A stretch of DNA of 64,000 nucleotides. It comes from Chloroflexota bacterium. Lineage in GTDB: Bacteria; Chloroflexota; Anaerolineae; JAAYEA01. The position numbers and the translations under genes are program-made. This document shows, piece by piece, positions 28,945-33,247 of this stretch (position 1 is its first letter; the number at the start of each line of letters is the position of its first letter). The stretch lies in assembly GCA_036841525.1 (NCBI GenBank), contig DAITVZ010000002.1, forward strand, positions 5,693-69,692, written 5' to 3'. The notes beneath the pieces were generated by a model. That model searched no databases, was not told where the DNA came from, and worked only from the letters and a program-made list of their open reading frames with translations.

Positions 28945-30234
28945 TCATCCTTCCCCTGCAATCGTCGGCGCGCCAGCTTGGCGGCTCGTGTCGACGCTTG
29001 CGGCATCCTTGAGCGCCATATAGGCATATAGGGTGGTCCACTTGTTCGGCTCTCCCACCTTCCCCGACTTGACCCAGACAGCCGAATGCTGCTCCTCCAG
29101 CGGATAGCGACCCTCTGCGTCCCGCTTGCTGGCCAGGCGCTCCCAGGCGTCCGCCAAGGCAGGGTGCTTGCCGTATCCCATGCGGCTAAGTGCATGCAGC
29201 GGCTCCAGCAAGTTGCCCCAGAAGAGAAAAGGGAACTGCAACCGCACCAACTCGTCTCGAATCAACTGGTCAGGTGGGCTCATGCGGTACAGAACTCGGC
29301 GCCTCAGAAAGTACTCCACGACCTGCTGGCATCGCCGCGTACCCCACAACTCGGGCAGAGCGGCGAAACAGCTCAGCGCCTTGGTTGACCCTCGGATGCA
29401 GCTCTTGGTGCGAGGGCTGAACGAGTCACGGTCGCAGAGATACCCCCCGTCCCAGCGCGTGTCGCTCAGCAGAACCTGAACGCGCTCCTCGATCCGGGGG
29501 TCGTCTCGGTAGCCGAGCATCACAAAGCTGCGCAGGTTATAGGCGTAGAGACAGGACTGGTGATTGCGATAGTCGGGCGGATGTTCCCAGCGAGGACGGT
29601 CCTGGGCCACGGGCGGCAGCGTCAGGTAACGGTCCACCGCGCGCGCAATGCGCTCGTCGCTCCGATCCATGCCCAGCTCCGCCAGATAGCCAAGCGTCAA
29701 GTGCGTCGAATTGGGCCAGCGATAGTCTACGCCCGCGCCCTTGCCCTGGTAGAGCCAGTACCCATCGGGGTGCATCTTGGCGAACAACTTGCGCACCGGT
29801 TCGCTCGCAGGGATCTGCGCCTTGGCGGCCAATACCTCGGGATCGTTTTGCAGCCGATCGAGCAGCTCGCGCAACGCTCGGTAGCGCACGGAAGGCTCGC
29901 TCTCCTCCAGCAACCAGGCCAGGACCGTATCCGGGATCATCACATCCAGCCTCCTCGCCTGGCCGCCGTGCAATTGCCTCAGGCGCTCCAGCGCCCGCCC
30001 ATAGCTGGCGTTCTGCTCGCTCCATCCCACCAGCCTGACACAGGGGAACTCGGCGCACTCGTGGCAGTGGCCTAACCCCCTTTGGTCCACGCAGCATTGC
30101 AGGATCCAGCAGTCTGCGGACCAGTGCTTTGCCCGGTCGCCATGGCAGCCCTGGCACACCATGTTGCGCGCCACGGCCTCGGCTACCCCCTCGCCCTCTT
30201 TCAACCAACCCATCTGTTGGAACGACGCAATCAC
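28945..30234 (-). CDS. DUF3795-like Cys-rich zinc-ribbon domain fused to an alpha/alpha-toroid (prenyltransferase/squalene-oxidase-repeat-like) domain
   Basis: N-terminus CQGCHGDRAKHW...CWILQCCVDQRGLGHCHECAEFPC matches the DUF3795 cysteine pattern. The remainder is paralogous to the 32222-33247 product (shared blocks WLLxxxxPxVRY, GYWxxxG, KWxT near the C-terminus). Confidence 0.6.
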   Translation of the reverse strand: MIASFQQMGWLKEGEGVAEAVARNMVCQGCHGDRAKHWSADCWILQCCVDQRGLGHCHECAEFPCVRLVGWSEQNASYGRALERLRQLHGGQARRLDVMIPDTVLAWLLEESEPSVRYRALRELLDRLQNDPEVLAAKAQIPASEPVRKLFAKMHPDGYWLYQGKGAGVDYRWPNSTHLTLGYLAELGMDRSDERIARAVDRYLTLPPVAQDRPRWEHPPDYRNHQSCLYAYNLRSFVMLGYRDDPRIEERVQVLLSDTRWDGGYLCDRDSFSPRTKSCIRGSTKALSCFAALPELWGTRRCQQVVEYFLRRRVLYRMSPPDQLIRDELVRLQFPFLFWGNLLEPLHALSRMGYGKHPALADAWERLASKRDAEGRYPLEEQHSAVWVKSGKVGEPNKWTTLYAYMALKDAASVDTSRQAGAPTIAGEG

Positions 30235-30266
30235 TGTGACGCCCTCCCGGCATGCAAGCAGCCCGA

Positions 30267-31436
30267 CTACCTATAGAAGCTCAACGCTCTCTCGATGTGC
30301 TCAGCCGCCTCGGCGTCCTTGTCTCGCGCCCGCACGATCAGCGCCGCGATCTTGCGCCGGACCTCCGGCCTGGCCAGGTTACGTACCCGGTCCTCGCTCC
30401 GCCCGATCCCGCCCACGGCATCCCAGATCTGCCACATCAGGTCGTGCTCGCCAGCATAGCACGCCGCCGCCCGCAGCAGGTCCTCCGCCATCCCATAGGG
30501 CAGGTGCTCGATCGCCTCCATCAGAAACTGCCCGCCGTACCAGCGGCCCTCGGCCACCACCCCTACCGCCGAGTCGTGGACATTGAACCGCTGCCACAGC
30601 GCCGCCATGTCCTCGGTCGCAAACTCGCTGTCGCGCTCCAGGTGCTCTGCCCAGGCCGTGTAGGCTGCCAAGCCATTATGCCGGACGGCATGGTCGTACC
30701 GGGTCACCAGCGGCGTACGCGCCACCTGGAGGGCCCACTGCAGTGCGTCGCGGTATAGCTCCTTCAGCGGCGGACACGGCTGCTTCTCGCCAACAATGAT
30801 CGGCGACTGGGTGTCCTTGAACCAGTCGCGCTTGCGGAACTCGCCGGTCGGCTCGTACTCGAGGCCGGCGTTGAAGGGAGGCATCTGCTGGAAGCAGTTC
30901 CAGCCGATGAGCACGTCGCCGTCCTCGTCATACCCGGTGACCACGCAGCACTCGGGCGGGCCGATGACGCCAAAAGCTAACGCCGGCACGCCCCGGCGGA
31001 TGCTCTCCCCGATCCGTTGTCGCCAGGCCGCCTCGTTATCCGCCCCCTCGACGGGCTGCAGGACCTCGAAGCCGTAGCCGACGCTCCGAAATGCTCGCGC
31101 AAAGGGAGCCATCGGATCGTCGGACATGTACATGATCTCCACGTTGTCCTCGTGCCAGCCAGGCCGCCACGAGAGCTGAAAGGCGCAGCCCGTCACGCCC
31201 ATCAGGTACGAGTAGGTGCAGTGTACCCGGCAGGGCTCCCGCCCCTTGGCGTGCTTGCAGCCCCAGTCGGGCTCGCCCAGGTACTCGAGAACCGCCCGCA
31301 TGCTTGACGGGAAACAGACGTCCTCAGGGCACCGCGCCTTGTCCCGCTGTTGGGTCTGGTCATAGAAGCCCACAAAGGGCACGCCCTCCAGCACGACCCG
31401 CGAGGGTGTCAGCTTGGCCAGATTCTCCCCAGTCAT
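30267..31436 (-). CDS. Cys-rich hypothetical protein, possible papain-like (C39/BtrH_N-like) fold with a helical C-terminal domain
   Basis: Q-x6-C...DVCFPSSMRAVLEYLG resembles the Gln-oxyanion/Cys-nucleophile region of C39/BtrH_N-type papain-like domains, and further Cys residues are present (a likely partner-histidine region was not identified). Start at MTGENLAKL, 216 nt inside the tool ORF, with a GGAAAGGGGGA ribosome-binding site. Confidence 0.5.
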   Translation of the reverse strand: MTGENLAKLTPSRVVLEGVPFVGFYDQTQQRDKARCPEDVCFPSSMRAVLEYLGEPDWGCKHAKGREPCRVHCTYSYLMGVTGCAFQLSWRPGWHEDNVEIMYMSDDPMAPFARAFRSVGYGFEVLQPVEGADNEAAWRQRIGESIRRGVPALAFGVIGPPECCVVTGYDEDGDVLIGWNCFQQMPPFNAGLEYEPTGEFRKRDWFKDTQSPIIVGEKQPCPPLKELYRDALQWALQVARTPLVTRYDHAVRHNGLAAYTAWAEHLERDSEFATEDMAALWQRFNVHDSAVGVVAEGRWYGGQFLMEAIEHLPYGMAEDLLRAAACYAGEHDLMWQIWDAVGGIGRSEDRVRNLARPEVRRKIAALIVRARDKDAEAAEHIERALSFYR

Positions 31437-32052: not shown

Positions 32053-32221
32053 AGCGATCCCTCCCCTGGTGCGAATGTAGGTAACGACGCGATGTTACTT
32101 GGATCTGCGCTAGACTGCCATGCGCTGCGTCAAGCGGCCGCTTGGCTGGGCAGGCGCGCCTTTTGCGCGTATAATGGGGCCGTACCCGAAAATGGCGCAC
32201 ACGGAAGCAGGAGGATGCGAC

Positions 32222-33247
32222 ATGTCGTGGCGGGGACGCCTGCGCGGCGATCCGCTATCCTGGCTGTTGCAGATCGATCACGACCAGCCTGGGGTGCGTT
32301 ACCTGACGCTCACCGAAGTCCTCGGCCGCCCTGCCGATGATGACGAGGTGATCCAGGCGCGCGCAGCAGCCATGTCCTCCGGGCCCATCCCGGCCATCCT
32401 CGGAGCCCAGCGCGCCGAGGGCTACTGGGAAAAGCCAGGCCCCGGATACGGCCCCAAGTACCGGGGCACCGTCTGGCAGGTGATCTTTCTCGCCCAACTC
32501 GGCGCCGATGGCGCGGACCCCCGAGTTTGGACCGCCGGCAACTATGTTCTTGACCACTCTCGCACTGACCTGGGTGGCTTTAGCGCCGACGGGACGCGCG
32601 CGGGCCAGGTGCACTGCCTGCAGGGCAACCTCTGCCACGCGCTTCTCGCCCTGGGCTGGCTCGGCGATCCCCGCCTCGACGCGGCGCTGGACTGGCTGGC
32701 GCGCAGCATCACCGGCGAGGGCATTGCCCCCAGCACGGAGACCCAGGCTTCCGCGCGCTACATGCGCAGCGGCAATAGCGCGCCCGGCTTTTGCTGTGCC
32801 GCCAATAACCAACTCCCCTGTGCCTGGGGCGCCGTCAAGGCCATGCTGGGCTTGAGCCAGGTGCCGGAATTTCGGCGAACGCCCGCGATCAGTGCGGCTA
32901 TCGCACAAGGGCTCGAGTTCCTGCTGGGACGCGACCCTGCTGCCGCCGACTATCCTTGCGGCTACAGCGACAAGCCCAGCACGAGCTGGTTCCGCTTCGG
33001 CTACCCGCTCGGCTATGTGACCGACGTCTTGCAGAACCTGGAGGCGCTCACGGCATTGGGCTGCGGCCACGACCCGCGCCTGAACAACGCACTCGAAATG
33101 GTTCTGCAGAAGCGGGACGAGCAAGGGCGCTGGCGCATGGACTATACGTACAATGGCAAGATGTGGGCCGACATCGAGAGCAAGGGGCAGCCCAGCAAAT
33201 GGGTCACCTGGCGAGCGCTGCGCGTATTGGATCGCGCAACCCAATAG
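32222..33247 (+). CDS. alpha/alpha-toroid (prenyltransferase/squalene-oxidase-repeat-like) protein, paralog of the 28945-30234 product but without DUF3795
   Basis: Shares blocks with the other toroid protein (SWLLQIDHDQPGVRY / AWLLEESEPSVRY; EGYWEKPGPGYG / DGYWLYQGKGAG; C-terminal KWVTWRALRVL / KWTTLYAYMAL). Start at MSWRGRL, 102 nt inside the tool ORF, with a GGAGGATG ribosome-binding site. TATAAT at 32170-32175 lies upstream. Confidence 0.6.
   Translation: MSWRGRLRGDPLSWLLQIDHDQPGVRYLTLTEVLGRPADDDEVIQARAAAMSSGPIPAILGAQRAEGYWEKPGPGYGPKYRGTVWQVIFLAQLGADGADPRVWTAGNYVLDHSRTDLGGFSADGTRAGQVHCLQGNLCHALLALGWLGDPRLDAALDWLARSITGEGIAPSTETQASARYMRSGNSAPGFCCAANNQLPCAWGAVKAMLGLSQVPEFRRTPAISAAIAQGLEFLLGRDPAAADYPCGYSDKPSTSWFRFGYPLGYVTDVLQNLEALTALGCGHDPRLNNALEMVLQKRDEQGRWRMDYTYNGKMWADIESKGQPSKWVTWRALRVLDRATQ

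Follow-up and report, generated by a model that had tools for sequence, protein, structure and literature searches.

Alpha/alpha-toroid proteins with a conserved cysteine triad and their facultative gene partners at a Chloroflexota locus

Do the neighbouring uncharacterised genes of one bacterial locus form a functional module, and does it act on glycans or on small molecules? The question is raised by a stretch of 64,000 nucleotides (nt) from a Chloroflexota bacterium (assembly GCA_036841525.1, contig DAITVZ010000002.1, positions 5,693 to 69,692), which is called the window here and is numbered from its first letter. Between positions 28,945 and 33,247 it carries two alpha/alpha-toroid proteins, one of them preceded by a DUF3795 segment, a Cys-rich protein with a protease-like fold (the protease-fold protein) and an OsmC-family gene. 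A preliminary description of the letters had suggested a novel glycan-processing or small-molecule-modifying module. The four genes are no single module. Their conserved core consists of three uncharacterised families (toroid, protease-fold and DUF3795) that are loosely linked, and of the two suggested roles "small-molecule-modifying" suits them better than "glycan-processing". The folds themselves are known; the toroid and protease-fold families are undescribed and fail the tests for the defining features of their nearest neighbours.

Toroid 1 (28945–29940, minus strand) is a core of 331 amino acids (aa) within a 429-aa open reading frame (ORF) read at 28945–30234 on the minus strand, which also contains the DUF3795 part. 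Toroid 2 (32222–33247, plus strand, 341 aa) is its paralog from a much larger subfamily, and the two share 26% identity over 342 columns (E 3e-26), so the paralogy described before is borne out. The AlphaFold2 (AF2) model of toroid 1, computed from a 47-sequence alignment, consists of paired helices with a predicted local distance difference test (pLDDT) score above 90 over residues 100–415. When toroid 1 was compared with the PDB by Foldseek, only weak matches were obtained (E about 3e-4, template modelling score 0.35–0.5). They were single-domain class II terpene cyclases, drimenyl-diphosphate synthase and members of the glycoside hydrolase (GH) families GH88, GH105 and GH76, with 14–18% identity to the terpene-cyclase-type toroids versus 7–14% to most GH folds. 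The toroid family profile matched squalene-hopene cyclase repeats (E 0.003) and gave E of about 0.6 with Rab GGTase beta. The AF2 model and the fold searches agree with the toroid fold of the preliminary description, and its remark on QW-like repeats is probably right too. No match was found for either toroid protein in Pfam, NCBIfam or single-sequence PDB searches, and PF13243, marginal in a few members of the family, was not found in the window proteins. As stated before, the toroids have no LanC or GH assignment; the structure-based search returned generic matches and no confident GH family.

The toroids are cytoplasmic proteins of a large superfamily, for which neither Pfam nor NCBIfam offers a model. 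Word-indexed searches gave 246 clusters of the toroid 1 type and at least 4748 relatives (about 342 aa) of the toroid 2 type. An exhaustive profile search, run on representatives of 50% identity clusters, found 3157 superfamily representatives at E<=1e-3 and 1282 at E<=1e-10. Nearly all members are single-domain proteins of 300–350 aa. Among the 150 best representatives no informative domain fusion was found, and two long proteins (P0398 and P0480) had no informative extra domain.

The hallmark of the superfamily is a cysteine triad. One of its residues belongs to a DGG(Y/W)xC loop, and the other two each mark the N-terminus of one of two successive inner helices. In an alignment of 113 diverse representatives, C228, C267 and C279 of toroid 1 (429-aa ORF numbering) are conserved in 98%, 97% and 92%, respectively. 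They are the only strongly conserved polar residues of this alignment, in which no conserved acidic residue or histidine was found; conservation extends to W107, W399, T401 and a number of glycines and prolines. The triad is kept in all paralogs aligned across it, namely toroid 2, the three tandem copies at locus L050, L018c and L068 (homologous loci carry L numbers). For the divergent L064 and L078 toroids the alignment reached the first two cysteines only. The local motifs are SCLY, GGYLC and KSCIRG. In the AF2 model C228 and C279 are located at the first turn of helices 227–239 and 280–291, with C267 on the DGGYLC loop that separates the two helices. The central cavity of toroids of this class opens within a ring of inner-helix N-termini, which is where protein prenyltransferase and LanC bind their zinc. 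From this placement of the cysteines a metal site can therefore reasonably be inferred. C228, C267 and C279 would line the cavity mouth and hold a metal, either as Zn(Cys)3 or as a three-Cys Fe-S cluster; the observations that suit zinc would also suit such a cluster or a binding site for a soft metal(loid).

Some side observations concern the naming and arrangement of the toroids. In NCBI the toroid 2 family, the largest branch of the superfamily, is labelled "nitrogen fixation protein NifH" (window 32222–33247; P0350, P0388, P0288, P0346, P0355 and P0359). Its members are 340-aa alpha/alpha toroids that lack the P-loop ATPase features of NifH and match nothing in NCBIfam. The name is a propagated misannotation and should be dropped from the annotation of the family. 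Tandem divergent toroid paralogs occur in groups of two or three, at L050 6995–9968 (three), L053 256–2227 (two) and L018 6049–8886 (three), with the triad kept where checked. They may be hetero-oligomers or a substrate-variant set. At L048/L049, genes for an Rce1-like CPBP protease (3080–3856) and an ICMT/PEMT-like methyltransferase (4635–5333) are found about 4.1 and 2.7 kb, respectively, from a toroid 2 homolog (8001–9041), at this one locus and on mixed strands. Their resemblance to eukaryotic CaaX processing by prenyltransferase, Rce1 and ICMT is probably a coincidence.

The protease-fold family is represented in the window by a Cys-rich protein of 389 aa (30267–31436, minus strand; the mechanical ORF extends to 31652). 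Its AF2 model (pLDDT 90) has an alpha/beta N-domain and a four-helix C-domain. The fold is bipartite, with a papain-like N-domain of BtrH_N/CtaG type followed by the helical C-domain. CtaG is a bipartite papain-like ligase with a Cys11-His128-Asp144 triad that uses carrier-protein thioester substrates (PMC12865890). The catalytic positions of the 389-aa protein were mapped by aligning its motifs with those of a paralog that matches Peptidase_C39_2 weakly, not by three-dimensional superposition. The helix start C41-F-P-S-S-M-R-A-V-L-E-Y-L-G aligns with C27-E-F-A-S-A-L-M of this distant paralog, which places residue 41 at the position of the papain nucleophile. The residue is Cys in the window protein; among the 37 family members it is Cys in only three and otherwise mostly Pro (20), Ile (8) or Thr (4). 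The His position is Glu in 34 of the 37, and the corresponding strand of the window protein reads P-P-E162-C-C-V-V-T-G-Y-D. Judged from this alignment, the Cys-His-Asp triad is degenerate. The Gln run belongs to a lineage-specific insertion that is absent from most relatives. The papain/C39/BtrH_N-type fold assigned in the preliminary description was thus recovered, whereas its Gln-Cys active site was not, with residue 41 being Pro, Ile or Thr in 32 of 37 sequences.

The other cysteines of this protein suggest a different role. C36, C60, C69 and C73, often together with H62, are located in or beside a low-confidence insert (residues 53–73), and the four are lost jointly in 5–6 of the 37 sequences. 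Because of this joint loss, the covarying cysteines look like a structural zinc site, not a nucleophile. C73 was also considered as the papain nucleophile and was dropped, since it is lost together with C36, C60 and C69 and the insert-free paralog has its Cys at position 41 instead. Polar residues that never vary in the family are D97/N98, S145, Y169/D170, Q183, R201 and R252, and in the helical domain H287, E296, R298 and H331. Searches of Pfam, NCBIfam and, with the single sequence, the PDB gave nothing useful for the 389-aa protein, and profile searches of the PDB returned only noise for its family and for the L047 paralog. This distant paralog (L047 13622–14671; 349 aa, 33% identity) has no Cys/His insert, carries Cys at the nucleophile position and is the protein with the weak Peptidase_C39_2 match. 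It lies 2.6 kb downstream of a toroid, in an array that also holds a canonical protease-fold member. At L005/L056 (5729–12997) a protease-fold homolog is found between GH3 and GH20, with genes for an NTP-transferase and an APH-type kinase alongside. The arrangement is reminiscent of amino-sugar salvage (N-acetylmuramic acid/N-acetylglucosamine) and is the clearest glycan-type context for the family.

DUF3795 proteins are small, contain 11 cysteines and often occur as multiple copies; they are conserved over their whole length, with no leader-plus-variable-core pattern in the alignment. The copy in the window is a 5'-truncated module of 91 codons (29962–30234, minus strand; Pfam PF12675). The Pfam match covers residues 21–68 of the 429-aa ORF (33 bits with a cut-off of 22.6, E 8e-8) and spans only positions 34–81 of the 83 in the profile. 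Eight cysteines are retained, and the first CGxxCxxC (C-x3-C-x2-C) motif, which full-length DUF3795 neighbours carry in the alignment, is absent. It is not encoded upstream in any frame, and the preceding gene ends 32 nt away. A PDB search with full-length DUF3795 gave only an insignificant ZZ-zinc-finger-like match (E 0.38), a hint at most, and a literature search on DUF3795 turned up nothing relevant. At L046 a 331-aa protein (11101–12096), 132 nt downstream of a toroid gene, joins a full DUF3795 (residues 5–96) to an unannotated C-terminal part of about 235 aa.

The joining of DUF3795 and toroid 1 in one ORF depends on a single base. Codon CAG (Gln92; 29959–29961, minus strand) is a TAG stop in near-identical strains: in the DNA alignment with contigs L051 and L052 (overall identity about 99%), window position 29961 is C and both contigs have T. 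These contigs encode separate 91-aa and 331-aa proteins in place of the 429-aa ORF, and the 90% identity cluster of the 429-aa protein contains members of 429, 422 and 419 aa as well as 91/331-aa pairs from other assemblies. The AGGAGG Shine-Dalgarno sequence of the toroid 1 gene (29950–29955, minus strand) is kept inside the fused ORF, 9 nt before the ATG at 29940 that starts the 331-aa toroid protein. Because of the CAG/TAG difference and the surviving AGGAGG and ATG, the fusion is a strain-level polymorphism in the stop codon between two adjacent in-frame genes and is no established architecture. The DUF3795-type N-terminus described before is real as a Pfam match, whereas the domain lacks its first Cys motif and the fusion should not enter annotation as a domain architecture.

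The surroundings of the homologs were surveyed from two sides. The toroid-side survey covered 36 genome loci of GTDB species representatives from Chloroflexota, Spirochaetota, WOR-3, Bacillota, Thermotogota, Bacteroidales, Thermoplasmatota and Hodarchaeota, and the protease-fold-side survey covered 80 metagenome loci. A DUF3795 gene abuts a toroid gene in six loci of three phyla, including the window. It is 55 nt upstream of the toroid at L010, 132 nt downstream at L013/L046 (with two further copies 4.3 kb away) and overlaps the toroid gene by 8 nt at L029 (Clostridia); two copies lie between two toroid genes at L018, and four flank the toroid at L024 (WOR-3). In nine loci (window, L014, L021/L045, L097, L101/L104, L107, L068, L064 and L078) a toroid gene starts less than 1.5 kb downstream of a protease-fold gene and on its strand, and the gap is 3–7 kb at L011, L112, L047/L131 and L001. 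Counted from the protease-fold side, the close arrangement is present in 7 of the 37 loci whose downstream sequence reaches 1.5 kb or more. The pairing was found with different toroid subfamilies. In contrast, OsmC was found beside none of the homologs in 44 related loci (tblastn), and MttB, GH95 and the genes downstream of toroid 1 were not recurrent next to homologs in the loci examined. These results indicate that the linkage of DUF3795, toroid and protease-fold genes is real but facultative. The grouping seen by the preliminary description recurs for these three families and is not conserved as a four-gene unit.

Homologs of the toroid and protease-fold genes are found in long co-directional arrays (gene maps with precomputed Pfam assignments, with which targeted scans agree). 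A census of 150 same-strand neighbours gave GNAT (12), DinB_2, H2TH and DUF3795 (5 each), glyoxalase and Cass2 (4 each), and DUF1706 and GyrI-like (3 each), and no GH family was among the 25 commonest neighbours. The array families are GNAT, glyoxalase/VOC (including the bleomycin-resistance type), DinB_2, DUF1706, GyrI-like/Cass2 and AlkZ-like, together with Fpg/Nei (H2TH), UDG, AlkD-type DNA_alkylation, HhH-GPD, nitroreductase, isochorismatase and transglutaminase-core. Two gene orders recur. One begins with Fpg/Nei and, after further genes, continues with protease-fold, Glyoxalase_2 and toroid (L097, L101 and L107); the other is protease-fold, divergent toroid, DUF1706/DinB and DUF3795 (L064, L078, L061, L081 and L066).

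Several of these neighbours have relatives of known function. ClbS (DUF1706) is a detoxifying protein for colibactin, whose warhead it opens, and thiol S-transferases are among the DinB_2 proteins (PMC10693628). GyrI-like proteins act by hydrolysis on yatakemycin and CC-1065 (PMC5684135), AlkZ serves in the repair of damage done by azinomycin B (PMC4705692), and AlkD/YtkR2 excises yatakemycin adducts (PMC8626424). By family membership, the array genes are homologous to factors that act on electrophilic toxins by binding, hydrolysis or thiol conjugation, or that repair the DNA adducts of these toxins. The glycan-processing context suggested before is not what typically surrounds the homologs, whose usual neighbours are resistance/detoxification and DNA-glycosylase genes. 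Arrays of 15–20 small genes in Anaerolineae and other Chloroflexota (L001/L016, L045, L046, L047 and L050) look like genotoxin or xenobiotic resistance islands. The arrays also contain a further family, about 405 aa long and matched in neither Pfam nor NCBIfam, which is present in 9 of the 80 protease-fold loci (for example L046 8733–9953, L047 5470–6693, L117 776–1984 and L112 8787–10010), and it is directly upstream of the toroid at L046.

A tentative picture can be drawn from the fold, the triad and these neighbours. The toroid would be an enzyme of metal-thiolate type whose substrate is small and either electrophilic or hydrophobic, and its chemistry would be akin to that of the zinc-thiolate sites in protein prenyltransferase and LanC, members of the same fold class. 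Protein prenyltransferase beta and LanC are alpha/alpha toroids whose zinc activates a thiol. The CtaG-fold protein without the triad might be a ligand-binding or non-thiol catalytic partner for the same compound, and DUF3795 a metal-binding or redox helper. In the window this trio would head a minus-strand operon starting from the promoter at 31510–31482; OsmC, the toroid 2 neighbours MttB and GH95, and the fusion are local accidents. By analogy with these systems, metal-thiolate toroids with partners acting on small electrophiles, and not a glycan module, are a possible explanation, which we put forward with low confidence. For the overall picture our confidence is somewhat below even; the statements about structures and families merit much more, and the chemistry merits much less. 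A bolder extension is improbable in our estimate: Cys-triad toroids would be a new class of metal-thiolate enzymes (Zn or three-Cys Fe-S) and, with the triad-less CtaG-fold partner and DUF3795 helpers, would make up a hitherto unnoticed system of resistance to, or detoxification of, electrophilic genotoxins or other reactive small molecules. Such a system would be common among anaerobes of both bacteria and archaea, Chloroflexota, Bacillota, WOR-3, Spirochaetota, Thermotogota, Thermoplasmatota and Hodarchaeota among them. All lineages that carry the toroid family are typical anaerobes.

Several points weigh against this metal-thiolate picture. Most toroid loci have neither partner nearby, and the DUF3795 copy of the window is truncated and may be decaying. 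The metal site is putative, with the clustering of the three cysteines inferred from helix topology alone. The genes that follow toroid 1 in the window are generic metabolic ones. The arrays are heterogeneous "accessory" islands, so that co-occurrence may reflect island membership rather than a common pathway. That most toroid loci are without the partners also favours an incidental juxtaposition of unrelated accessory genes with independent functions in a flexible region, as do the lack of conservation of OsmC, MttB, GH95 and the downstream metabolic genes beside homologs, the separate terminator of OsmC, the single-base nature of the fusion and the great differences among the arrays of different genomes. 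What speaks against it is the repetition: the same-strand order of protease-fold and toroid within less than 1.5 kb in nine distinct loci with different toroid subfamilies, and DUF3795 abutting toroids in three phyla, where in one case the stop codon of one gene overlaps the start codon of the next. Families this scarce, which account for a fraction of a percent of the genes in a genome, are unlikely to meet so repeatedly, a judgement rather than a formal statistic. Pure coincidence holds for OsmC, MttB and GH95 and is unlikely for the protease-fold/toroid and DUF3795/toroid pairs; juxtaposition as the whole explanation appears rather unlikely.

Glycosidases near the homologs, here (GH95 and GH2), at L005 (GH3 and GH20 on either side of a protease-fold homolog) and at L047 (a melibiase), also count against the metal-thiolate picture and would suit a glycan-processing module, in which the toroids are a new GH, lyase or epimerase family, perhaps with a Cys/Zn active site like that of GH127, working alongside GH95 and other sugar enzymes. 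In GH127, an (alpha/alpha)6 barrel, zinc is bound at a Cys3-Glu site. The sugar-epimerase-like TIM-barrel gene that comes next after toroid 1, the spacing of only 23–30 nt between toroid 2, MttB and GH95, and the generic GH-like fold matches point the same way. However, conservation across the superfamily extends to the three cysteines and to no acidic residue, and structural matches have higher identity to terpene-cyclase-type toroids than to most GH folds. GH95 and MttB do not recur beside homologs, the commonest neighbours include no GH, the toroids have no GH sequence signature, and no signal peptides or carbohydrate-binding modules were seen when the translations were read. A glycan module therefore has a small probability in our estimate. 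Lower still is that of thiol modification in the manner of ribosomally synthesised and post-translationally modified peptides (RiPPs), where a LanC- or prenyltransferase-like toroid would act on the cysteines of DUF3795 and the C39/BtrH-like protein would process or transfer the product. Small multi-copy Cys-rich genes adjoining a modifying enzyme are a typical RiPP layout, and DUF3795 occurs in 2–4 tandem copies beside toroids (L018, L024 and L046). The cysteine-based putative metal site of the toroid, the papain/C39-type fold of the partner with its Peptidase_C39_2-matching paralog, and the Rce1-like and ICMT-like genes near one toroid 2 homolog would also suit such a system. Yet DUF3795 is conserved end to end like a folded domain, most toroid loci have no DUF3795 gene, and most members of the C39-like family lack the Cys and the His. 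LanC motifs and Pfam LANC_like are absent, and no dehydratase, LanB/LanM, radical-SAM or export genes were recurrent in the neighbourhoods examined.

The remaining features of the region concern its transcription and its local neighbours. Upstream of the protease-fold gene, the sigma-70-like promoter TTGACA-17-TATGAT (31482–31510, minus strand; 11/12 matches, extended TG) confirms the minus-strand promoter reported before, and the minus-strand genes after toroid 1 all lie downstream of it. They encode a sugar-epimerase-like TIM barrel, a family III CoA-transferase, a GNAT protein, an FAD oxidoreductase and an MtaA-like URO-D protein. Endonuclease IV was considered for the TIM-barrel gene and dropped, its NCBIfam matches being sugar epimerases/isomerases. 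A second promoter-like site, TGGGCA-17-TATAAT (32147–32175, plus strand; 10/12 matches), is ahead of the toroid 2 start at Met35 of the 375-aa mechanical ORF (32120–33247, plus strand). The start of toroid 2 is most likely at 32222 (341 aa), as in the NCBI gene call. The region contains three promoter-like sites versus 0.7 expected from shuffled sequences. The OsmC-family ORF (31633–32052, minus strand; 139 aa) matches Pfam PF02566 with E 4e-18 and 66 bits (cut-off 27.5), and both family cysteines, C53 and C118 (CPV), can be read from its translation. All NCBIfam subfamily matches were under the cut-off, and no OsmC, Ohr or YhfA subtype was assigned. It is followed by an intrinsic terminator with an 11-bp stem (9 GC pairs) and a T-run (31588–31612, minus strand); gene and terminator were both correctly described before, as was the adjoining MttB and GH95 pair downstream of toroid 2.

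The MttB-family gene (33277–34749, plus strand; Pfam MTTB) is full-length with no in-frame TAG and is followed by the GH95 gene (34772–37069, plus strand; Pfam). Four URO-D-family paralogs are present in the window at 13960–15204 (plus strand), 23915–25060, 43041–44042 and 44020–45081 (minus strand), and the one compared with NCBIfam gave weak matches to MtaA/CmuA methyltransferases. No corrinoid-binding protein was found among the window ORFs scanned. The URO-D paralogs and the MttB gene may be a non-pyrrolysine methyl-transfer system scattered among sugar-utilisation genes. Four more sizeable ORFs have no Pfam match. Those at 41694–43019 (plus strand), 45108–46367 (minus strand) and 16420–17094 (plus strand) have coding-like third-position GC; that at 20029–21597 (minus strand) has a low third-position GC (0.63) and may not be a gene. 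PADLOC anti-phage defence models gave no match at E<=0.01 for the four window proteins and full-length DUF3795. NCBIfam gave nothing for the three uncharacterised families or for a 402-aa recurrent neighbour.

The lasting interest of the locus is the huge Cys-triad toroid superfamily with its triad-less CtaG-fold partner, and the resistance-like arrays in anaerobes. If the triad holds a catalytic metal, it would be the first functional handle on a superfamily of more than 3000 sequence clusters and a new chemistry for the alpha/alpha-toroid fold. The recurrent triad-less CtaG-fold partner would mean a second use of a recently described ligase fold. The arrays suggest that anaerobes, including Anaerolineae, carry large gene sets like those with which antibiotic producers protect themselves from DNA toxins, which bears on the natural spread of genotoxin resistance.

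Among known systems, class II terpene cyclases and protein prenyltransferases (squalene-hopene cyclase, 8pak, 8paj, MstE and Rab GGTase beta) share with the toroids the fold class and the size of about 310–345 aa, and the DGG(Y/W) loops of the toroids may correspond to "QW-like" repeats. In contrast to class II terpene cyclases, the toroids have no DxDD acid motif in columns conserved to at least 75%. They also differ from protein prenyltransferase beta, having the Cys triad instead of Asp/Cys/His zinc ligands in register, and no gene like the alpha subunit was found among the neighbours examined. LanC-like proteins (PF05147), which are zinc-dependent thioether cyclases and glutathione transferases, have the alpha/alpha-toroid fold in common with the window toroids. 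In LanC a cysteine-ligated metal in this fold activates a thiol, which is the functional analogy proposed for the triad. However, the ligand set of the toroids would be Cys3 rather than Cys2His: the GxAHG/WCxG/CHG zinc-ligand motifs and any conserved His are absent, no Pfam LANC_like match was found at E<=0.1, LanC is not among the structural matches listed, and no lanthipeptide dehydratase genes are nearby. GH127 (DUF1680, an (alpha/alpha)6 barrel) has three active-site cysteines that recall the triad, and toroid 2 has adjacent cysteines (FCC). The toroids are much smaller single-domain proteins with no conserved Glu partner, no Pfam Glyco_hydro_127 match and no GH127 among the top structural matches. 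The family signatures and conserved catalytic carboxylates of GH88, GH105, GH76 and GH127 are likewise missing from them.

CtaG, BtrH, AziU3 and CcbD share the bipartite architecture of papain-like N-domain and helical C-domain with the 389-aa protein, at an identity of only 8–12%. Unlike CtaG, the 389-aa family has mostly Pro, Ile or Thr at the Cys position and Glu at the His position. It also differs from CtaG-type ligases in the extra covarying Cys/His insert (53–73) and the invariant His/Glu/Arg/His of the helical domain, and no genes for peptidyl or acyl carrier proteins, adenylation, ATP-grasp or CoA-ligase proteins were found in the neighbourhoods examined. The last comparison is with genotoxin self-resistance sets (ClbS/DUF1706, GyrI-like hydrolases, AlkZ, AlkD/YtkR2 and bleomycin-resistance VOC). 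None of the three core families is known to belong to such a set, the arrays are variable with no biosynthetic cluster adjacent, and the window itself is without those neighbours; in the Anaerolineae arrays, however, homologs of these self-resistance proteins are the commonest neighbours.

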